From the NCBI GenBank assembly GCA_021737325.1, contig JAIPED010000001.1:206-64205 (forward strand): DNA of 64,000 nucleotides, written 5' to 3'. Shown piece after piece: positions 3,487-60,257 of the stretch. The translations under genes and the position numbers were made by a program. The stretch is from Deltaproteobacteria bacterium. GTDB taxonomy: Bacteria; Desulfobacterota; Syntrophia; Syntrophales; JAIPED01. Numbering within the stretch: position 1 is the stretch's first letter; each line of letters begins with the position of its first letter. The notes under the pieces were generated by a model. It searched no databases and was not told the DNA's origin. It was given only the letters and a program-made list of their open reading frames with translations.

Positions 3487-4983
3487 CTAGCGGCGGCGGG
3501 TTTGGTTACGCACCGCCATGATAAACTGGTAGATGATAAAGGCGGTAATTAGACGGCAAAACGACCACCAGAAAAAGATTATCTTTCCTTGCTCGTAAAT
3601 AATGCGCGGGTCGGTTAGCGGGTTAAGGAAAAGTAAAAGTTTCTCCCAACTCCAGTACTGATAAAGCGGCGGTGGCGGGAAAAATCCCAGTTGAGAGACC
3701 CCTTCCATTACCAGAAAAACGAGAACCACGGCACAATAAACACCCAATGCCCGTAACCAGCTTTGCGAGAAATTGGAAACCGCCTTGTTGATGGTAAAAA
3801 CCACCTCGTCCTGACTGATCCCCTGCTCCTTCTTGAGCTCCTTTTCATATTCGCGCATCTCAAGGGCGTAAAACATGTTGGCGGCGATGACATTTCCTTG
3901 CTGTTCGTTGGCAAACTTAAGTTGGCGAAAGGTATCGCGGTCGCAGATAAAACGCTCTTCCATCCCCTGCGTGCGCCCCCAATCGACGCCGTCAAAAAGG
4001 CAGGCACTGAGGCGGGAGTTGGTAATTTCGATTTGACAATCACGCAGACGAACACGGTTGAACTCCGCTTTTTCGAGGTTGATATTCCCTATGGTAAGTT
4101 TGTCAGCGACCGTCAAATTAACCAACCGCAGGGTTCCGCCTTCGTTGATCATAGGTTTAATAGCTAATTCCTTGGCCCTACCACCAATTGTCAGACGGCT
4201 TGCTTTTTTTAGGTAAACTGAGGAAAAATCCGCCTTGCGGGAAAACTCTGCCTCCTCAAAATACGCCTCGCGGGAAAATTGTGCCACCCGAAAATCTGTG
4301 AAACTGTAAAATTTAGCTAGATTAAAATTTGCACAACTGGCATGAACAGAAAATTTGGTGGAGACAAAGTCAGCAACACCGAAAAAATATGCTGAATAAA
4401 AATTCGCATTGCCCATAAATTGTGCTCCTTGAAAATTAGCATTGACGGGAGAATCTGTTATCCCAAAATGTACTCTCCCAAGGTATGCTTCATCAAAAAA
4501 AATAGCATGTTGAAAGTTTGCCTCACTAAAAAACTGCGCACTACCGAAGTCTGTTTTATCAAGAAATTGCACAGCAGAAAAATTTGCCCCACGATGGAAT
4601 AGTACCCAACTAAAACAAACCATGCCGTGAAATTGCGCGTTGAAGAAAGAAACGGGCTTAGAAAAACATTTATCGTAAAGTCCGAAGTTCTTGTTCGCGT
4701 CCGTAACTGGAGGAAAAATGAAACGAGAAAAATCGTAGTCTTCTACGACATCCGTCTCCACTATTATTTCTTCGCGGAGGCGCTGCCAGAAGCGACCGAC
4801 CTTCTGCCATGATTTATCCCAGTTGCGGGTCTCACTTCCTTCAGGGGTTGTAACAGCTTCATACCAGTCATCCTTTGCCCGATGAAACAGGCAAAGGCGA
4901 TTCGCCAGATCGTCGTAGTTTTGAACGGTGGCGGTATCGAGTTTTAGTGCTCTGTGGCATATTGTACATCGCGCCTCTGCCAT
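3487..4983 (-). CDS. pentapeptide-repeat protein with N-terminal CxxC...CxxH element and C-terminal transmembrane region
   Basis: Long run of A(N/D)F-type pentapeptides (ANFSAVQFLDKTDFGSAQFFSEANFQHAIFF...). N-terminus has CTIC-x21-CLFH. The C-terminal ~90 aa are hydrophobic (ALGVYCAVVLVFLVM..., IIFFWWSFCRLITAFIIYQFIM). Confidence 0.8.
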   Translation of the reverse strand: MAEARCTICHRALKLDTATVQNYDDLANRLCLFHRAKDDWYEAVTTPEGSETRNWDKSWQKVGRFWQRLREEIIVETDVVEDYDFSRFIFPPVTDANKNFGLYDKCFSKPVSFFNAQFHGMVCFSWVLFHRGANFSAVQFLDKTDFGSAQFFSEANFQHAIFFDEAYLGRVHFGITDSPVNANFQGAQFMGNANFYSAYFFGVADFVSTKFSVHASCANFNLAKFYSFTDFRVAQFSREAYFEEAEFSRKADFSSVYLKKASRLTIGGRAKELAIKPMINEGGTLRLVNLTVADKLTIGNINLEKAEFNRVRLRDCQIEITNSRLSACLFDGVDWGRTQGMEERFICDRDTFRQLKFANEQQGNVIAANMFYALEMREYEKELKKEQGISQDEVVFTINKAVSNFSQSWLRALGVYCAVVLVFLVMEGVSQLGFFPPPPLYQYWSWEKLLLFLNPLTDPRIIYEQGKIIFFWWSFCRLITAFIIYQFIMAVRNQTRRR

Positions 4984-7731: not shown

Positions 7732-8445
7732 ATGGTTGAAACTATCAACTCCTTGTTTCTTGATTCTTTGGAAAGCTCTCGCTTGCTGGCTTATCTTTTC
7801 GCCTACGCTAGCGGCTTAATTGCCTCCTTCACCGCATGTGCCTATTCGCTACTGCCCGTAACCATTGCCATTATTGGTGCGAATAGCGCACAAACCCGCC
7901 AACGGGGCCTGTTGCTTTCCCTTGCCTATACCCTAGGATTGGCGGTGATGTACACCGCGCTAGGTGCCCTGGCGGTTTTGGCAGGGGTGTTTTTCGGTAG
8001 CATACAGACAAACCCCTTGGTTAATTTTGCCGTGGGCGGGCTTTTTGTCACCATGGGGCTTTCGCTGTTTGGTCTTTTTCCTCTTCCCCTTTTTACTCCG
8101 AGCTTTGTCGGTTCCGTGCGTCAACAGCGCAATAAGAGTCTTCTTGGCGTTTTTCTTCTGGGAATTGTCTCTGCGCTGGTGAGTAGCCCCTGCTCTAGCC
8201 CCATACTCATCGCGCTCTTGGGCTATTCGGCAAGTAGCGGTAATGTCTTTTTCGGCATGAGCTTACTCTTTTGCTTTGCCCTGGGAATGGGAACACTGCT
8301 TATTCTGGCGGGGACCTCGGCGGGGTTATTGACAAACCTGCCCAAGGCAGGAGCGTGGATGGAGAAAATTAATAAAATGGCGGGGGCAATTTTAATTATG
8401 GTCGGTGGTTATTTTTTGGTTAACGCCATTATCCTCTGGAGATAA
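7732..8445 (+). CDS. ccdA: cytochrome c biogenesis/thiol-disulfide transporter CcdA (DsbD-family)
   Basis: 237-aa polytopic protein with conserved Cys in TM1 (FTACAYSLLP) and TM4 (SSPCSSP). Confidence 0.8.
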   Translation: MVETINSLFLDSLESSRLLAYLFAYASGLIASFTACAYSLLPVTIAIIGANSAQTRQRGLLLSLAYTLGLAVMYTALGALAVLAGVFFGSIQTNPLVNFAVGGLFVTMGLSLFGLFPLPLFTPSFVGSVRQQRNKSLLGVFLLGIVSALVSSPCSSPILIALLGYSASSGNVFFGMSLLFCFALGMGTLLILAGTSAGLLTNLPKAGAWMEKINKMAGAILIMVGGYFLVNAIILWR

Positions 8446-8447
8446 CA

Positions 8448-8918
8448 ATGAAAACAAAATCAGTTGCAATCTTAATACTCGCTAGCGTTTTGGTCATGGC
8501 AATACTCTGCCCGCTGTCTGCCGCCAATAACCCCTCCCATTTTTTGCTTAAAGATATGCGGGGGGAAGCGTACGATTCGCGCCGAGTATTGGGGAAAAAG
8601 CCGCTTTTAATAGTATTTTCTACGACTTGGTGCCCCTCTTGCAATAAGCTTCTCCCCGAGTTTCGGCGCATCCATCGGCAATATACGCCCAAGGGATTGG
8701 AGATGATCTCCATTAACATTGGCGAATCAAACAAAAAGGTTGCGGCTTGGCTCTTCAAAAATCAGGTTCCCTACCGTGTACTGGTGGATGAAACAGGCGC
8801 GGTCGGAACAGCGTATCAGGTTATGGGAGTGCCAAGCATGGTGCTCATCAATAAAGAGGGCAAGGTGGTTTGTAACCCCTGCACTTCTTTGAAGCCAATC
8901 GATGATTTACTGAAGTGA
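8448..8918 (+). CDS. TlpA/ResA-family periplasmic thiol:disulfide oxidoreductase
   Basis: Signal peptide plus the thioredoxin motif WCPSC. Adjacent to ccdA. Confidence 0.8.
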   Translation: MKTKSVAILILASVLVMAILCPLSAANNPSHFLLKDMRGEAYDSRRVLGKKPLLIVFSTTWCPSCNKLLPEFRRIHRQYTPKGLEMISINIGESNKKVAAWLFKNQVPYRVLVDETGAVGTAYQVMGVPSMVLINKEGKVVCNPCTSLKPIDDLLK

Positions 8919-9871
8919 ACGAATTTCTACCCCAAAACACTCCGCTGGTATTTATGGGCACCCCCGAATTTTCCGCTTCCGTTTTACGGGCGTTAATTGC
9001 GGCGGGGTTTCCTCTTCGCGCCGTTGTTACCCGTGCCGATGCGCCCACAGGCAGGGGACAGATGTTAGTTGCGTCCCCCGTAAAAGCTGTCGCCGAGGAA
9101 CACGGCATTGCGGTAATCACACCCCAGCGCCTTGTTACCACTACGGCAGAGTATCTACGGGAACTCAACGCCAAACTGTTTGTCGTTGTCGCCTATGGCA
9201 AGATCCTCAAGGCGGATATCCTCAACATCCCCCCGCTTGGTTGCATTAATGTGCATCCCTCGCTCTTACCCCAATACCGAGGACCTGCGCCCGTTAACTG
9301 GGCTCTTTTTAACGGCGAGGAGAATAGCGGTATCTCCATCATGCGGATGGATGAGGGCATCGACACCGGCGATGTTGTTCTGCAAGAGGTGGTGCCAATC
9401 TTGCCCGACGATGACTACGGCTCGCTTTTAGCCCGTTACGCTACCCTAGCGGGAAGCATGCTCATACGAGCAATTACCCTAATCGCCACTGGTAAGGCGC
9501 ATTATCTCCCGCAGGATGATCGCCAAGCAACCTACGCACCGCTGATTACTAAGGAGCTAGGACAGATTGATTGGGCGCTACCCGTAAAGAGAATCGCCAA
9601 TTTGGTCCGTGGACTATCCCCAAACCCCGCGGCATATACCTTTATTGATGGCAGGCGCTGGAATGTCTATGTGGCGGGGTTTCAAGAAATCAACCACGGA
9701 GAACCTGTTGGCAAAATTATGCCACTAACTGCCGCGGGGCTACCCATTGCCGCAATTGATGGATTCGTCTTGCTACGAGAGGTACAGGTGGCAAATAAAA
9801 AACGCCTGCCGGTGCGCGATTTACTGAACGGCTACAAAATCGTCAGCAACTTTGTGGATGGCAAGCCGTAG
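8915..9871 (+). CDS. fmt: methionyl-tRNA formyltransferase
   Basis: VFMGTPEFSA..., INVHPSLLPQYRGPAPVNWAL, and the C-terminal Fmt domain. Confidence 0.9.
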   Translation: MNEFLPQNTPLVFMGTPEFSASVLRALIAAGFPLRAVVTRADAPTGRGQMLVASPVKAVAEEHGIAVITPQRLVTTTAEYLRELNAKLFVVVAYGKILKADILNIPPLGCINVHPSLLPQYRGPAPVNWALFNGEENSGISIMRMDEGIDTGDVVLQEVVPILPDDDYGSLLARYATLAGSMLIRAITLIATGKAHYLPQDDRQATYAPLITKELGQIDWALPVKRIANLVRGLSPNPAAYTFIDGRRWNVYVAGFQEINHGEPVGKIMPLTAAGLPIAAIDGFVLLREVQVANKKRLPVRDLLNGYKIVSNFVDGKP

Positions 9872-21582: not shown

Positions 21583-21734
21583 AAGACCACCGCACAACCT
21601 ATTCCTCCAAGCAGTAACGAAAGAAGGAGCTTGTCTGCTGGTTAAAATAATCAAAATATTTCCAGCACATCTGGATTCCCGCTTTCGCGGGAATGACAGT
21701 CGGAAGCAAAGAGGTATAGTTGTGCAAGAGTCTT
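21583..21734 (+). mobile_element. MITE copy A (152 bp) with imperfect terminal inverted repeats and 5-bp TSD TAAAA
   Basis: Left end aagaccaccgcacaacct. The right end reverse-complements to aagactcttgcacaacta. It is flanked on both sides by taaaa and contains the hairpin attcccgc-tttc-gcgggaat. Confidence 0.75.
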
Positions 21735-21749
21735 TAAAAGGGGATTACG

Positions 21750-22949
21750 ATGAAGAAAATTCTGCCTATTTGCGTCTTTTTATGCCTGCTCGCTAGCTAT
21801 AGCTTTGGCAGTGAGTTGGGTAATACCCTAAGACAAGCTGAACAGGGAGATGCTAAGGCCCAGTATAATCTGGGCATGATGTATGCCAAGGGAGAAGGCG
21901 TTGAGCAGGACTATAAACAGGCGGCACAATGGTACACCAAGGCTGCCGGGCAGGGACAGGCTGACGCACAGAAAAATCTGGGAAGGATGTATGCCAGGGG
22001 CGAAGGAGTTGCGCAGGACCATAAACAGGCGGTGCACTGGTTCACCAAGGCCGCAGAGCAGGAAGATGCTGAGGCACAGAGCTATCTGGGGTGGATGTAT
22101 GTTAGGGGCGAAGGAGTTGCGCAGGACCATAAACAGGCGGTGCACTGGCACACCAAGGCCGCAGAGCAGGGAGACGCTTATGCGCAGTACTATCTGGGGG
22201 TGATGTATGAAAACGGAGAAGGCGTTGAGCAGGATTATAATCAGGCGGCACAATGGTACACCAAGGCTGCCGGGCAGGGACAGGCTAACGCACAGAAAAA
22301 TTTGGGAAGGATGTATGAAAACGGTCAAGGCGTAGAGCAGGACCATAAAGAGGCAGTGCACTGGTTCACCAAGGCCGCAGAGCAGGGATATGCTGACGCG
22401 CAGTACTATCTTGGGGTGATGTATGGAAACGGAGAAGGCGTTGCGCAGGACTATAAACAGGCGGTGCATTGGTACACCAAGGCCGCAGAGCAGGGATATG
22501 CTGACGCACAGAAAAATCTGGTAGTGATGTATGGCATGGGCAAAGGCGTTGAGCAGGACTATAAACAGGCGGCACAGTGGCTCACCAAGGTCGCAGAGCA
22601 GGGAAATGTTGGAGGACAGTTTGCTCTTGGCATGATGTACGCCAAAGGTCTACTAGGTGTAGCGCAGGATTATAAGCAGGCTATAAGGTGGTACACCCTG
22701 GCCGCAAAGCAGGGACAGGCTGACGCGCAGAAAGATCTGGGATGGATGTATGCCTCCGGCAAGGGCATTCCCCAAAACTATAAACTTGCTTATATTTGGG
22801 AGAGTTTAGCCGCAGCGCAAGGAAATAAAGATGCGTTAACAAAGAGAGACATTGTTGCTAAAAAATTATCCCCCGCACAAATAGCGGAGGCTCAGGAACT
22901 GGCGGTACAAATGCAAAAAAAGATCGATAGCCATCAGGGCAGGAAATGA
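21750..22949 (+). CDS. secreted Sel1-like repeat (SLR) protein
   Basis: Signal peptide followed by ~10 tandem 36-aa units (AQYNLG.MY..GEGV.QDYKQA..WYTKAAEQG.A.AQ). Confidence 0.88.
   Translation: MKKILPICVFLCLLASYSFGSELGNTLRQAEQGDAKAQYNLGMMYAKGEGVEQDYKQAAQWYTKAAGQGQADAQKNLGRMYARGEGVAQDHKQAVHWFTKAAEQEDAEAQSYLGWMYVRGEGVAQDHKQAVHWHTKAAEQGDAYAQYYLGVMYENGEGVEQDYNQAAQWYTKAAGQGQANAQKNLGRMYENGQGVEQDHKEAVHWFTKAAEQGYADAQYYLGVMYGNGEGVAQDYKQAVHWYTKAAEQGYADAQKNLVVMYGMGKGVEQDYKQAAQWLTKVAEQGNVGGQFALGMMYAKGLLGVAQDYKQAIRWYTLAAKQGQADAQKDLGWMYASGKGIPQNYKLAYIWESLAAAQGNKDALTKRDIVAKKLSPAQIAEAQELAVQMQKKIDSHQGRK
21850..22790 (+). repeat. tandem 108-nt coding repeats (Sel1 units)
   Basis: Near-identical blocks, for example ggcggcacaatggtacaccaaggctgccgggcagggacaggct at ~21920 and ~22244. 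Confidence 0.85.
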
Positions 22950-54388: not shown

Positions 54389-54484
54389 CTTACTCCTTTC
54401 TCGGAGAAATTTGTGCACTAACGGTAAACTATATCGTTCGGTAGCCACTCTTTGCACAAGTTAATCTCTGAAAAACACTACTTG

Positions 54485-54691
54485 AAGACTCTTGCACAAC
54501 TGTACCTCTTTGCTTCCGACCGTCATTCCCGCACCCGTTTCCACGAGTGCAGGCTCCAGCGGGCAACCGCAAAAAACAAAATGCAATAGAATGACGCATC
54601 CAGATGCGCTGGAAATATTTTGGTTATTTTAACCAGCAGACAAGCTCCTTCTTTCGTTACCGTTTGGAGGAATAGGTTGTGCGGTGGTCTT
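54485..54691 (-). mobile_element. MITE copy B (207 bp), inverted relative to copy A, with 5-bp TSD ACTTG and a nested ~55-bp insert
   Basis: The reverse complement is ~95% identical to copy A over the first ~100 nt and the last ~45 nt. acttg flanks both ends (54480-54484 and 54692-54696). Confidence 0.78.
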
Positions 54692-55562: not shown

Positions 55563-55787
55563 TGGACCACTGCACCGTTTGGCTTGTTGTGGTCATATAA
55601 AACGACTGTTATGAAAGTGGAATGCCATGCTTTTCGGGGCCATTCCCGCGCAAACGGGCAACCGCAAAAAGCAAAATACACTAGAATGACGCATCCAGAA
55701 ACTGCTGTAATATTTATGGTTTTTTTATCGGTTTCCCACTGATGCGCACTGCTGTTGGTTGAGGGATGGGATCGTGCAATGGTCTTT
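55563..55787 (-). mobile_element. diverged MITE copy C
   Basis: The ends ggaccactgcacc (55564) and the reverse complement of 55770-55787 (aaagaccattgcacga) resemble the family terminal repeats. The internal block gggcaaccgcaaaaa.caaaat.ca.tagaatgacgcatccaga is shared with copy B. No intact TSD. Confidence 0.5.
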
Positions 55788-55816: not shown

Positions 55817-56332
55817 TCATTGAGGGTAGTCTTTCTTGAAAGTTAAACAATGCAATTCTTTAAAACGATCATGAAATCCCCAGCCAATTCCATCAGTGTG
55901 CGAGACAATAGTCGAACATCTTTCTTGATAGTCTTGGTATAAATTATCTTTTATGATTAGTTCCATGGCTGAGTCAAAAGAGGATTCAATTGATGAATAA
56001 AATCTCTCATCAATATCGCCATGTTCGTTCGTGTAATCTACTCCTTGTTCTACATGAAAAAGAAGTAAATCGATTATGTTTTGGTTTGATTTTGTGGTTT
56101 TCTTAAAATCAGATATTATTTTTCTAACCACACCAATCCTTGCTTCGCCTAAACCTCTTGATGGGAAATATTCTTGCTTGATAGATTTTTTAAATTTATT
56201 GAGCACATCGTCGCTTTCACCTAATAGATTTGATTAATATTCTTGAACATTTGGGATTTGTTTCGAGAGGGTGATAACTTCACGAACGAGTTCATCTTTT
56301 GATTTGCCAACCAGATATTCTTTAAGCTTCAT
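55817..56332 (-). pseudogene. DUF6155-like gene interrupted by an in-frame TAA
   Basis: ATG 56332 opens MKLKEYLVGKSKDELVREVITLSKQIPNVQEY, then TAA at 56236..56234. The same frame continues SNLLGESDDVLNKFKKSIKQEYFPSRG... to the stop at 55817. The family call is from memory of the DUF6155 pattern (...EYFP.RG..., FY.S...SF). An in-frame upstream ATG also exists at 56368. Confidence 0.55.
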
Positions 56333-56397
56333 GGTAGTGCTACGAGCACTAGTATTTATGGTCTTCATTATGCCGTTTTAATCGCCGTTAATAATTG

Positions 56398-56457
56398 TGC
56401 TAACGATAATGGCAAGTTGCGCCGCTTTTTGGCGTCAACTTGACCAGCTTGTTATCC
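56398..56457 (-). mobile_element. attC-type (59-base-element-like) recombination site
   Basis: Minus strand: GGATAAC-AAGCT-GG(T)CAAGTTG(A)CGCC-AAAAAGC-GGCGCAACTTGCC-ATTATC-GTTAGCA. This gives an R''-like ..TAAC, an R'-like GTTAG.., an 11-bp L stem plus GG/CC with two bulged bases on one arm, and an unpaired spacer. It overlaps the stop codon of the upstream gene. Confidence 0.65.
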
Positions 56458-57297
56458 CCAATGTTCAATTTTTCCTTCCACGAAGTTTATAAATGCAGAA
56501 CAGACAACCAGCATAAACTTTGCATCATTAAAGTCAGTCTTTTCTAGCTCGGTCATGGCGTGACGAATACCACCCTCATCAGATGTATATCCATACAAAC
56601 TACTGAATGCGGTCTTTAAAGCAGGATGTAAGCCAATATCCGTTTCAAGCTTTTTTATTAGCTGTCCAAGCGTGCCCTTTTCTTGACCTGTGGTTATTGC
56701 AACAAAACTTTCAACTGCTGATATAGATTCTTTTATTGAATTTCTATAATCCGGCGATCCGCGATCCGAGAGCAATTCAAGTGCGCGTCGCAGATGGGTT
56801 CTAACAGGGCCAGCACTTTTCTCTAGTGCGAGCTCTATTTCTGCCACTTCATGCTGTTCAGTTATGCGTGTAATGGTTCCGTCAACGAAGCGGTAAGCAG
56901 ACATCTCTTTTTCAAGAAGAGCATTACAGCTTTTGGTGAATTTTTCAGGAAATTGATATTTGTTAAAATTGTTAGCAACAAACTCAATAAAGTCGTAAGC
57001 TTCATACCATTCACAGTCGAAAAAGTAGCGCCTCAATTGTTCTAGTACTTTTGTCCAATTGTTGCCCAGTTGGTCAAGTGGTTCCTTAAAATAATCAAGC
57101 CAAAGCCGTTTACACAATAATTGATGATCTTGATTGCTACTCAGGTAATGGCCATAAACATGCCTCGAAAAGTGAACATGATCCCAAACATGCAACTTGA
57201 GCAAGCTCCATAAGCCATTGCGCAAAGGCCCATCCATTGATTCAATTTGGATGATTTCCCGAATTGGTTTATAACCATACCGTTCAGAAAAACTCAC
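56452..57297 (-). CDS. AbiJ-NTD4 / HEPN(AbiJ)-like abortive-infection protein
   Basis: N-terminus MSFSERYGYKP..IQIESMDGPLRNGLWS (AbiJ N-terminal domain 4 pattern). C-terminus ...DYRNSIKESISAVESF...LYGYTSDEGGIRHA (HEPN_AbiJ pattern). GTG start with an AAGGAG RBS. Confidence 0.7.
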   Translation of the reverse strand: MSFSERYGYKPIREIIQIESMDGPLRNGLWSLLKLHVWDHVHFSRHVYGHYLSSNQDHQLLCKRLWLDYFKEPLDQLGNNWTKVLEQLRRYFFDCEWYEAYDFIEFVANNFNKYQFPEKFTKSCNALLEKEMSAYRFVDGTITRITEQHEVAEIELALEKSAGPVRTHLRRALELLSDRGSPDYRNSIKESISAVESFVAITTGQEKGTLGQLIKKLETDIGLHPALKTAFSSLYGYTSDEGGIRHAMTELEKTDFNDAKFMLVVCSAFINFVEGKIEHWG

Positions 57298-57390
57298 TCT
57301 TTCTCCTTATGGCCAATCTCGGCGGTAAGCGGTCCCGCGTAGCGGGAGTCCGTCTTGGCTGCATGGTTCTTCGCCCGAGCAGAGCGAGGG

Positions 57391-57454
57391 GAATAACACT
57401 TGAGTTCAGCGGCGTGCGGCTTTTTACGCAGGCCGGTGGAATGATGGGTTGGGC
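57391..57454 (-). mobile_element. attC-type recombination site
   Basis: Minus strand: GCCCAAC-CCATCATTCCACCGGC-CTGCG-TAAAAAGC-CGCAC-GCCGCTGAACTCAAGT-GTTATTC. R'' fits RYYYAAC. R' starts with GTT but its purine positions are poor. The L'/R' arm CTGAACTCAAGTGTTA resembles class-1 aadA-type attC (...CTTAACTCAAGCGTTAG) as I remember it. Confidence 0.6.
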
Positions 57455-57475: not shown

Positions 57476-58051
57476 TCACTTGACAAAAAACTCCTCCGCC
57501 TGCGCTAAGAACTGTTGGTAGAACTGCGCCCCAGCCTCTGCTACTGACACGACGTTCATGGGATCGACGGGACTGCCCAAGTGAGTTGTTGGAATAGGGT
57601 AAGTGCGACCGCGATTCACCACAGGCAAGAGCGTAGTTCTGGCGGGAAGAAAATCCACTCTTATCTTCTGCGGCGACTTAATTGAGATGCGCCCGTTGTT
57701 TATTTCCATGCGCTCGATGTAAAGGCTGTTTCCCTCTGCGGCATTGATTCCAATGCCCCCTGGTTCCCGCCCAACAATTTCATTGACTGTGTGTTCGTCC
57801 GCACCACGCACGTTTACGAGGTATGCGAGTAATGGGTCGGTCTTTCTAGGGCCCTCAAACCTGCCTTTCCAGCCATTCCACTTCGGGCTCTTTCCGAATT
57901 GGCTGAACGCCTTGTTCCAAACACGTTCCAGGCGTCCAAGAAACTCTTTCCAGTTCTCTTCAAATTCGTCCAGCGCTTTCGCACTGCGCATTGCGTCAAT
58001 CGCAACGCGGGCCTTCGCGAGTTCAATGTGCGGCTGTTCGGAATGCTGCAT
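57476..58051 (-). CDS. uncharacterised protein with helical N-domain carrying an Rx4H (HEPN-like) motif and a beta-rich C-domain
   Basis: 191 aa. Helix-rich residues 1-100 end in DPLLAYLVNVRGADEHT (R82-x4-H87). GC-richer than the neighbouring genes and followed by an attC-type site. Confidence 0.6.
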   Translation of the reverse strand: MQHSEQPHIELAKARVAIDAMRSAKALDEFEENWKEFLGRLERVWNKAFSQFGKSPKWNGWKGRFEGPRKTDPLLAYLVNVRGADEHTVNEIVGREPGGIGINAAEGNSLYIERMEINNGRISIKSPQKIRVDFLPARTTLLPVVNRGRTYPIPTTHLGSPVDPMNVVSVAEAGAQFYQQFLAQAEEFFVK

Positions 58052-58163: not shown

Positions 58164-58838
58164 TTAATTTTGCTGATCTCGCATTGTACATATAATACTA
58201 TCCATTACCCCTGTGATTTGAACAGCTACTTGTTGCCAAGCAATGAGTGCAGCCTTATCTCCAGAAGCATAACCCCACATATTGTATTCTCTATGCTCAG
58301 CCGCTAAGGGTATTGTAAATTTAATTGGCTTATCACCTCTATAGTCTTGAAGCTCAATGTCGACCCAAGCTGCACCATTCCACCAACCCTCTCCTGAGAT
58401 TGATCCAGCTAATACAGATTGCTGACCAGAAAAACTTCCAACAACAGAGCCCCATGACCCTGTTGCGCTAACTTGAGCTGAGCTAATTGCATTTGAGAAA
58501 GCTGTTGTTGATATTAAACGATTTCCAAAAGAAGACCCAAGCGTAACTATCCGAATCCTGACTGCAACACGGCCGGGTTTTATCATTTTGAAATAATCAT
58601 ACCATTCGATTGAAGAACCATAGATCCGTTTCAAATCTGCTTGTAGTTGTGATGCAGCATCACTAGGTTCTTTAGTGGCTCTCCCATCAAAAACAGCTAT
58701 TAGAATTGGTAATTTTAATTCAAGACCTACTCTTTCAGAATCTGAAAGTGTAGGAGATATGTGACGCTCTGCTACGCATCCACTGCATAAAGTTAGAAGA
58801 ATCGTAAATGACATAATTAGCAGATGTTTGTTTTTCAC
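58164..58838 (-). CDS. lipoprotein of unknown function
   Basis: GTG start with a GGAGG RBS. Signal peptide MKNKHLLIMSFTILLTLCSGC with a lipobox-like CSG|C. No family recognised. Confidence 0.7.
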   Translation of the reverse strand: MKNKHLLIMSFTILLTLCSGCVAERHISPTLSDSERVGLELKLPILIAVFDGRATKEPSDAASQLQADLKRIYGSSIEWYDYFKMIKPGRVAVRIRIVTLGSSFGNRLISTTAFSNAISSAQVSATGSWGSVVGSFSGQQSVLAGSISGEGWWNGAAWVDIELQDYRGDKPIKFTIPLAAEHREYNMWGYASGDKAALIAWQQVAVQITGVMDSIICTMRDQQN

Positions 58839-58930
58839 TAATTTCCTCCAGCTAACCAGTTATATTATCTGAACGATTTTCGTTAGAAGTATCAAAGGGG
58901 GCTTGGCATGTCAAAAATGAAATGCTGTTA

Positions 58931-59010
58931 CAGCCAAGATAAAATGTCCCATTTGCTGAATGGTTGGCTGGGAATTTTTATAAAGCTACTCCGCCATGCT
59001 TATGCTTCCT
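58931..59010. repeat. direct repeat DR1 (~80 nt) with palindromic core
   Basis: cagccaagataaaatgtcccatttgctgaatggttggctgggaatttttataaagctactc... matches 60171-60257. Core hairpin cagccaa...ttggctg with an inner ccatt-tgctg-aatgg. Confidence 0.85.
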
Positions 59011-59064: not shown

Positions 59065-59445
59065 TCAACTCATTTTAGTATTTTTTAGACGAAGGGAAAC
59101 ATGGAAAAGGATTACACATACTAACATTGCCGTTAGTAAAAGTAGAAAGGCAAGGATTAGAAAAGCCGCCGCAAACACTAAGCGCAGGTTAACACCCAAG
59201 GGGTATAGCAACAGCCAGACGAAGATAATGCCAGCAACCAATTCGGTGCTGAATAATAGCCATACAACAGCTGCATGAGCTTTACCTGCTAACCGCGAAA
59301 TAAAACTTCCTATGTAACCAGGGAAATAACGATTCTTGGTGCTTTCTACTAGCCTGGGGAACAGTGCTATGGATACGGAAAAAACCCCCGCCCCGAGAAT
59401 CAGCATGGGAGTAACATAGGCGATGATATTCGTTTCGTTCAACAC
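59065..59445 (-). CDS. small polytopic membrane protein (3-4 TM), unknown function
   Basis: 126 aa. Hydrophobic segments IIAYVTPMLILGAGVFSVSIALF, AAVVWLLFSTELVAGIIFVWLLLY and LRLVFAAAFLILAFLLLLTAMLVCVILF. The GTG start overlaps the upstream gene by 7 nt. Confidence 0.65.
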   Translation of the reverse strand: MLNETNIIAYVTPMLILGAGVFSVSIALFPRLVESTKNRYFPGYIGSFISRLAGKAHAAVVWLLFSTELVAGIIFVWLLLYPLGVNLRLVFAAAFLILAFLLLLTAMLVCVILFHVSLRLKNTKMS

Positions 59446-60023
59446 GCTACCTCAGAATCGCTGGCATGGTCATACAATGGTAAACCACTGACATTATTTA
59501 TATCTATTCTCTCTGCGTCCGTCCGCAACCTTTCAAATTCTTCCTTAAAAACCCGTTGGAATCTTTTTGTTGCTTTTTCGGTGCATTGCACCATTTCATA
59601 GGTGCTCTCCACATCGTGCTCAGATTCAATCATGACATTATCTGCCATCAAAATGCCATGTTCTGGTGGTCTGCTGTGTTGATGGCGAAAAACTGTTAAC
59701 CTTTCGGGATACTGGGAGAGAAGCTCCTCTAACTGTCCTCTCTGCTCTTTCGCCCAAATTTTATCGCCAAACAGCAGGGTGAGGGAACGACAATTATTGT
59801 CGGCAAGCGACACCTTGAGAAACTCCAGACATTTGCATTCTCCGTAGATACAAAGGACATGGTATGGCTCTTTCCGCTTTGCCTGCCTTTCCCGCCATTC
59901 TTTCTGTACCTCCCGCACGGGGTTTTCCTCTTTTTTAGCAGGAATATTGGGCACAAAAAATACATAACCCACACCCCAAATCTTAGTTCGCTTAAAAGCA
60001 GATCCCATGTGAACGCTCCCCAT
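59439..60023 (-). CDS. uncharacterised soluble protein (194 aa)
   Basis: ORF with no family I recognise. Translationally coupled to the downstream membrane-protein gene. An alternative start at M6 is possible. Confidence 0.6.
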   Translation of the reverse strand: MGSVHMGSAFKRTKIWGVGYVFFVPNIPAKKEENPVREVQKEWRERQAKRKEPYHVLCIYGECKCLEFLKVSLADNNCRSLTLLFGDKIWAKEQRGQLEELLSQYPERLTVFRHQHSRPPEHGILMADNVMIESEHDVESTYEMVQCTEKATKRFQRVFKEEFERLRTDAERIDINNVSGLPLYDHASDSEVAC

Positions 60024-60170
60024 CTATGCGTTGCTCGCAACTTGTCGTTTCCAATGCGATTATCAAACACTTCCCAACAACCACAGGGCGGAGGTGCTAC
60101 TCTCGGGATATTTTTTTGTCAAGGACGCATAGAACAGTTATGCTGCAGCTAAGTCAAAATGCCCTTATTT

Positions 60171-60257
60171 CTGCCAAGGTAAATTGTTCCGTTTGCTGAA
60201 TGGTTGGCTGGGGATTTTCATAAAGCTACTCTGTAATTCTTATGCCGCTGCTTCCTC
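60171..60257. repeat. direct repeat DR2 (~87 nt)
   Basis: ctgccaaggtaaattgttccgtttgctgaatggttggctggggattttcataaagctactc... lies 1240 nt from DR1. A partial extra copy of the left sub-element is at 60141-60165. Confidence 0.85.

Follow-up and report, generated by a model that had tools for sequence, protein, structure and literature searches.

A minus-strand gene for an AbiJ-like protein lies between two attC sites in a probable integrase-less cassette array of a Deltaproteobacteria metagenome-assembled genome

We analysed a 64,000-nucleotide (nt) stretch of contig JAIPED010000001.1, from a metagenome-assembled genome (MAG) of an uncultured Deltaproteobacteria bacterium; this whole stretch is called the window below. 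The subject of this report is a minus-strand open reading frame (ORF) of the window that encodes an AbiJ-like protein of 281 amino acids (aa), together with the two hairpins that flank it. We found that the locus is likely to be a two-attC CALIN (cluster of attC sites lacking an integron integrase) that holds the AbiJ-like gene as a cassette. A previous reading made from the sequence only had proposed a cassette of ~1 kb with a single ORF between two attC sites, and two covariance models, R1 and R2, recovered exactly these two sites on either side of the ORF. The assignment to a two-attC CALIN follows from the presence of the two sites and the absence of both an integron integrase gene (intI) and a third site in the 64 kb.

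Surrogate covariance models, R1 built from 6 sites and R2 from 15, were used in place of the attC model of IntegronFinder (attC_4.cm). R1 was free of window sequence, and its seeds were the aadA1 attC of R100, two attC sites from a complete integron (L005) and three sites from two further loci (L024 and L003). The aadA1 seed was verified: it matched at 100% in R100 between aadA1 and qacEdelta1, next to intI1, and its best-place identity was at least 99% in 1962 records, many of them plasmids. The two L005 seeds adjoin an integron integrase (TIGR02249, E = 1.5e-143). A strict scan combining R''/R' boxes with folding served solely to choose seed sites. A loose hand-written scan of the same kind gave 855 matches in the window; its criteria were too loose and it was discarded. 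When R1 was run on the window (128 kb of searched strand), it returned exactly two sites, one on each side of the ORF and both on its strand, and the next best match had an E-value of 1.3. R2, run with filters off over the whole 64 kb, gave no third site.

An attC is recognised by its boxes R'' (RYYYAAC) and R' (GTTRRRY), imperfect L''/L' inverted repeats and extrahelical bases. The cassette's own attC lies downstream of the gene at 56,398-56,457 on the minus strand. It is 60 nt long, with the boxes R'' GGATAAC and R' GTTAGCA, and scored 27.9 bits with R1 (E = 1.6e-04). Its GTT is at 56,404-56,402, where the sequence-only reading had placed it, its bottom strand carries a bulged T and a bulged A at a distance of 7 bp, and its layout matches that of the aadA1 attC of R100 box for box. 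The upstream attC, which belongs to the preceding cassette, is a 64-nt site at 57,391-57,454 (minus strand) with R'' GCCCAAC at 57,454-57,448 and R' GTTATTC at 57,397-57,391. It scored 37.0 bits with R1 (E = 7.1e-07) and 30.1 bits (E = 8e-06) with R2, which does not contain it. Its GTT occupies 57,397-57,395, 1-3 nt away from the earlier estimate of 57,394, and the crossover at 57,397|57,396 sets the 5' edge of the AbiJ-like cassette. The two sites are 934 nt apart. Folded as DNA, the bottom strands gave z-scores of -4.2 for the downstream and -3.1 for the upstream site, so that the folding check suggested earlier for both strands of the candidates was borne out on the bottom strands; the top strand of the upstream site folds weakly, as discussed below. 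In the R2 alignment, 89.8% of cells were paired and compensatory changes were present in 7 of 10 L-stem pairs, against 22-42% paired cells in slid controls; as the alignment was fitted to the model, this figure is supportive rather than independent. Rfam gave nothing at gathering thresholds in the window and noise alone at E ≤ 1 in the surrounding island. From these results, we conclude that the two hairpins are genuine attC sites rather than chance resemblances.

The two covariance-model matches define the boundaries of the AbiJ-like cassette, which runs from G|TT to G|TT on the minus strand (T 57,396 to G 56,404; 56,404-57,396) and measures 993 nt, close to the ~990 nt estimated before. Its leader (57,298-57,396, minus strand) is 99 nt long and not 93 nt as first counted. 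The ribosome-binding site (RBS) AAGGAG is present as described, at 57,308-57,303, and is followed by a 5-nt spacer and a GTG start codon at 57,297-57,295. The ORF spans 56,452-57,297 (minus strand, stop codon included), and its TAA stop codon (56,454-56,452) sits within the R'' box GGATAAC (56,457-56,451); the reported overlap of the downstream attC with the stop codon is therefore real. The 5' end of the cassette, G plus TTATTC, forms 6 of 7 Watson-Crick pairs and one G.T pair with the cassette's own R'', whereas the GTTAGCA that is now its downstream neighbour is complementary to this R'' at only 5 of 7 positions. Such a better match between the cassette start and its own R'' is predicted for a cassette that was once circular. 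Each cassette would once have been a circle, which an integron integrase would have inserted at a G|TT by way of the folded bottom strand of its attC. Homologous cassettes from three other loci (L083, L042 and L021) open with G|TTATCC and have the RBS within ~20 nt. A consensus scan of the cassette strand from 59,793 to 56,400 found no sigma-70-like site, in agreement with the earlier description of the cassette as promoterless; with no promoter of its own, the AbiJ-like gene would be read from upstream transcription. A contig from an independent assembly (Logan SRR12088349, L001) was 100% identical to window positions 57,388-55,083. This assembly ends 8 nt inside the 5' boundary of the cassette, within R' of the upstream attC, and the break could stem from low coverage, or from a cassette that has other upstream neighbours in that sample.

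No tyrosine-recombinase motif was found in the 64-kb window. In a tblastn search of the window with IntI of L005 and IntI1 of R100, the best match had an E-value of 0.8 and lay inside an energy-coupling factor (ECF) ABC ATPase; the ORF at 1,842-2,666, which showed this kind of weak similarity to IntI, is an ECF-transporter ATPase and was rejected. A complete integron has intI and attI beside the array, and here the gene upstream of the island is prfA. The locus resembles known integron cassettes and CALINs (PMC4889954; Loot et al., bioRxiv 10.1101/2022.09.11.507474) in its one promoterless ORF behind a short leader, in its 60-nt attC with R''/R' boxes, imperfect L stem and bulged bases, in its G|TT boundaries, and in having two attC sites less than 1 kb apart with no integrase. 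It differs from them in that the array has only two sites, the upstream one is degraded, the first 5' junction is not G|TT, the leader is ~80 nt longer and the host is an uncultured Deltaproteobacteria MAG.

The protein is identical to NCBI K9K75_00285, annotated as a hypothetical protein in a MAG of a Deltaproteobacteria bacterium. Pfam revealed AbiJ_NTD4 (PF18863) at residues 1-159 (E = 5.6e-39; 134.5 bits against a cut-off of 34), which upholds the N-terminal half of the earlier domain assignment, AbiJ_NTD4 followed by an AbiJ-type HEPN domain. Additionally, the PADLOC family PDC-S32 (PDLC04997) matched residues 1-277 of 281 (E = 1.7e-113). Homologues at E ≤ 1e-5 numbered 7,962 of 8,000 scored candidates, the best 120 of which share 66-85% identity with the window protein, and the window protein keeps every invariant position of the family. 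The PDC families comprise 145 candidate systems nominated for their embedding in BREX, DISARM or type I restriction-modification (R-M) loci (Payne et al. 2024, bioRxiv 10.1101/2024.01.29.577857). The window protein matches the PDC-S32 hidden Markov model over its full length, but its context is an integron cassette, an independent mobile and defence-rich context. No mention of PDC-S32 was found in the literature searched, and PADLOC detected no defence genes among the neighbours.

The gene recurs as a cassette elsewhere. We examined 80 genome and 80 metagenome loci of AbiJ_NTD4 homologues with R2. An adjacent attC was present at 6 of the 80 genome loci (on both sides at 3) and at 21 of the 80 metagenome loci (on both sides at 7), so that the proposed metagenome search for the same gene family beside different attC sites gave a positive answer. 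All 61 attC matches in the two sets shared the strand of the gene and were 54-130 nt long. One of the loci, L005, is a complete integron with the AbiJ-like homologue ~3.3 kb from a true intI. The majority of homologues are not in cassettes, and the gene therefore travels on several vehicles. An example is an 80%-identical homologue on a 215-kb contig (L084), which has no attC and lies between inverted repeats of ~46 bp (~7,860-7,910 and 8,900-8,950). It adjoins an IS110-family transposase, between the core genes parE/parC and nadA/nadC, so that the same gene appears to use another vehicle here. In the array of a Desulfobacteraceae MAG (L003), two attC sites (3,936-3,995 and 3,998-4,057) are only 2 nt apart with no ORF between them; the pair looks like an empty or ORF-less cassette.

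The C-terminal helical domain (56,455-56,820, minus strand; approximately residues 160-281) has a predicted HEPN-like fold. This domain was modelled alone because a full-length Foldseek search was swamped by noise, and the AlphaFold2 model had a pLDDT of 77. Foldseek comparison of this model with the PDB revealed that six of the seven top matches were HEPN domains (1ufb, 2hsb, 2q00, 1o3u, 3o10 and 1wol), with probabilities of 0.96-1.00, TM-scores of 0.55-0.63 and non-significant E-values of 0.06-0.3. Among 40 diverse homologues, weak matches to Abi_C (PF14355) were present in seven (best E = 0.029, under the 24-bit cut-off), to DUF4145 in three and to Ymh in one; all three are listed as HEPN families (PMC3710099). 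The weak Abi_C matches were colinear, with profile positions 7-46 falling on one half of the domain and 46-82 on the other. A PDB sequence search with the family profile gave nothing. Several results weigh against a HEPN assignment. In isolation, the domain had no Pfam match even at E ≤ 10, HEPN and Abi_C models included. The Foldseek E-values all exceeded 0.05, and helical bundles can match by chance. The canonical HEPN motif Rx4-6H is missing: H246 is not preceded by an R at a distance of 4-6 residues, and neither R245 nor R185 is followed by an H at that distance. For the AbiJ-type HEPN claimed earlier for this half of the protein, there is a predicted HEPN-like fold and there are weak Abi_C matches in relatives, with neither the Pfam match nor the motif.

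We compared the domain with the AbiJ HEPN family and with Lactococcus lactis AbiJ (Anantharaman et al. 2013, PMC3710099). The domain logic is the same, as AbiJ-NTD4 was defined there as an N-terminal partner of the AbiJ HEPN domain, and a helical HEPN-like C-terminal bundle is common to both, although on the window side it is a predicted model. The motif differs: AbiJ is listed with a conserved Rx4-6H, whereas the window protein has an invariant adjacent R245-H246 pair with E250 instead. The profile similarity of the window family to Abi_C is also sub-threshold. The supplement of that paper contains no AbiJ alignment. Across relatives of 37-52% identity, the invariant residues include H168, K189, E190, S193, E196, Y235, G243, R245-H246 and C266; R185, N186 and E250 are nearly invariant in these relatives and invariant in closer homologues. 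We describe the C-terminal domain as HEPN-like, its motif being non-canonical, and regard it as at most a tentative member of the AbiJ HEPN family.

The leader of the window cassette holds ~80 GC-rich nt (57,310-57,392, minus strand) that are missing from homologous cassettes. The leader of the homologous cassette L083 reads G|TTATCCCTAAGGAGAAAGAGTG, whereas that of the window reads TTATTCCCC, the ~80 nt and then TAAGGAGAAAGAGTG. Neither the fetched loci nor a metagenome scan for exact matches gave a counterpart of the extra stretch. Its 5' part CUCGCUCU is paired in the predicted RNA fold with AGAGUGAG, a segment that spans the GUG start codon; at z = -1.2, this fold does not reach significance. 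A combined proposal holds that the C-terminal domain is HEPN-derived with a rearranged active site, in which the invariant Arg-His dyad plus Glu stands for Rx4-6H, that the family is among the commonest single-gene defence cassettes of environmental integrons, and that the leader insertion is a translational brake on a toxic effector. Taken as a whole, we consider this proposal improbable.

An AbiJ-like mode of action is the likeliest mechanism for the protein. In AbiJ proteins, a HEPN RNase is joined to N-terminal domains of various kinds (PMC3710099). By analogy with them, the N-terminal domain would sense infection and keep the C-terminal HEPN-like domain inactive until it is triggered; its release would lead to RNA cleavage and to arrest of the infected cell. 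A known relative by description is Taranis, an Abi_C integron cassette of the Vibrio cholerae superintegron with reported anti-phage activity (Darracq et al. 2024, bioRxiv 10.1101/2024.07.02.601686); the concept of an Abi-type defence cassette is therefore already known. Both are single-gene integron cassettes of AbiJ-type architecture, with a variable N-terminal domain and a C-terminal HEPN-family domain, which in the window protein is a predicted HEPN-like fold. Taranis has a Pfam Abi_C match and a distant relationship to AbiJ_NTD5, whereas the window protein has AbiJ_NTD4 and falls under the Abi_C threshold; in contrast to Taranis, the window family is a candidate for anti-phage activity.

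The island extends over ~55.5-60.4 kb, between prfA-prmC-murA and TauE-Sir2-TANGO2, its GC content swings from 32% to 53%, and no tRNAs were found. The gene of the upstream cassette, ORF191 (57,476-58,051, minus strand), encodes a complete 191-aa protein of a conserved family with no Pfam, NCBIfam or PADLOC assignment. Its 197 homologues are mostly 191 aa long, and the named ones include Ralstonia, Paraburkholderia, Burkholderiaceae and Betaproteobacteria MAGs. One copy, in a Betaproteobacteria MAG (L085), has 93% aa and 88.6% nt identity and is an attC-flanked cassette with different neighbours (IS110-family transposases, an acetyltransferase, GrpB and PIN/RHH genes). The nt homology covers window positions 58,065-57,401, beginning with the first bases of the cassette and reaching into the attC. 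The L085 cassette starts with G|TTGGGC, and GTTGGGC is the exact complement of the R'' box GCCCAAC in the window. The upstream attC of the window is homologous to the L085 attC and is a weakened, degraded copy.

Directly after the downstream attC lies a DUF6155 gene (55,817-56,368, minus strand; Pfam DUF6155, E = 9.7e-12, on the distal 129 aa) with a GC content of 32-34%. It contains a single in-frame TAA at codon 45 (56,236-56,234) and is otherwise translated in a single frame; it is a candidate for a pseudogene, a sequencing error or read-through, and may be a third, decayed cassette. The covariance models detected no attC after this gene and none upstream of ORF191. With the stop codon in the DUF6155 gene and no following attC, the array looks partly decayed, while the AbiJ-like gene is intact. 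Approximately 30 nt past the DUF6155 stop there is a TGCTAAA, identical at 6 of 7 positions to the R'' TGCTAAC that would complement GTTAGCA, and this heptamer may be the stump of a lost attC.

Several features weigh against reading the locus as a CALIN, and they have to be set beside the other explanations of the array. The surrogate covariance models are small, and the promoter scan applied a sigma-70 consensus to deltaproteobacterial DNA. Compared with its L085 homologue, the upstream attC has lost its bulged A and gained two C.C stem mismatches, and its top strand folds weakly (z = -1.3). Cassette 1 opens with GAGATCGGGC in place of G|TTGGGC, with neither attC nor attI upstream. That the hairpins are not attC sites at all, and are intrinsic terminators or genome-specific repeats resembling repetitive extragenic palindromes, is hardly credible. 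It is true that both lie directly 3' of ORFs and have an A-rich loop, and that the genome holds other dispersed intergenic repeats (D1 and D2, below). However, the hairpins match a model made from integron attC sites of other organisms, R100 included; they lack a T-tract, a terminator scan calls neither, and neither has a second copy within the window. Moreover, the upstream hairpin is homologous to an attC within the L085 attC array, and homologous genes bear attC sites at the same position. The changes in the upstream attC and the improper 5' junction of cassette 1, with the absence of an integrase from the 64 kb and the nonsense codon and missing attC of the DUF6155 gene, speak for another explanation: that the attC sites are real but the unit is no longer mobile, a decaying remnant in which selection has kept the AbiJ-like gene alone as an ordinary fixed gene of the island. 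We find this possible but doubtful. The cassette's own attC has a canonical form and a strong fold, integrases work in trans, changes of sequence are tolerated in attC sites if their structure is kept, and intI may lie elsewhere in the MAG, as the search covered the 64-kb window. For the CALIN, the earlier term 'mobile' holds as a potential only, with no integrase in the window and a degraded upstream attC: renewed movement would need IntI in trans, and the degraded site probably lowers the chance of excision.

The origin of the CALIN and the role of its protein may also be read differently. The array may have formed by integrase-mediated insertion of cassettes at a non-integron site (the attG route, consensus GWT) and not as the remnant of an integron that lost intI. 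Small CALINs are common: two cassettes make up 1362 of 2961, and 95% have no recognisable intI pseudogene near them (bioRxiv 10.1101/2022.09.11.507474). The window holds no intI remnant, IS110 or similar element, and GWT is matched at the right junction, G|TTAGC. At the left junction, however, the sequence is A|TC and not G|TT, and both flanks look foreign, with GC contents of 32%-53%, so that the original target cannot be reconstructed; we give this route a rather low probability. As for the protein, the name 'abortive infection' reaches it through its family names, and PDC-S32 has candidate status only. This status, together with the missing Rx4-6H motif, the lack of PADLOC defence neighbours and the proposal of a part in stress-induced dormancy for HEPN genes carried by integron cassettes (PMC3710099), would suit an RNase toxin of the stress-response or addiction type that keeps the array stable, or a C-terminal domain that is not a nuclease. 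Nevertheless, such a non-defence role seems unlikely, since the PDC families were drawn from genes that lie inside BREX, DISARM and type I R-M loci, the AbiJ_NTD4 architecture is tied to Abi-type HEPN proteins (PMC3710099) and integron cassettes are documented as reservoirs of defence genes (bioRxiv 10.1101/2024.07.02.601686). The gene also stands alone, lacking an antitoxin partner, and is nevertheless intact and very widely distributed.

Integron cassettes have recently been recognised as reservoirs of anti-phage systems. The present locus and the many attC-flanked homologues give independent contextual support for PDC-S32 (AbiJ_NTD4) as a cassette-borne candidate defence gene across bacterial classes, and they nominate for experiment a compact protein of 281 aa whose HEPN-like motif is non-canonical. 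The upstream cassette adds a case of cassette sharing between classes, as an 88.6%-identical betaproteobacterial cassette lies in a deltaproteobacterial chromosome, in a small array with no integrase. Current concepts are unchanged by the locus, which is a well-supported but ordinary example.

Two other repeats were observed in the window. The direct repeat D1 (78 nt; 58,928-59,005 and 60,168-60,245, minus-strand orientation) has 85% identity between its copies, or ~110 nt with alignable flanks, and contains a nested inverted repeat CAGCCAA...TTGGCTG; D1 has no Rfam match. The copies lie upstream of two unrelated minus-strand units, a lipoprotein-like ORF (58,164-58,838) and the ORFs at 59,439-60,023 and 59,065-59,445. 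D1 was considered as a pair of long attC sites and rejected, as it has no complementary arms and no GTT box and scored at noise level with both models; it could be a duplicated promoter or regulatory region. The dispersed intergenic repeat D2 occurs at 54,470-54,640, 55,655-55,699 and 21,634-21,734 with 93-96% identity in segments and no Rfam match; the copy at 21.7 kb lacks its central ~66 nt. The three copies lie directly upstream of Sir2, TauE and a Sel1/TPR-like ORF (21,750-22,949), in a constant orientation to the downstream gene.

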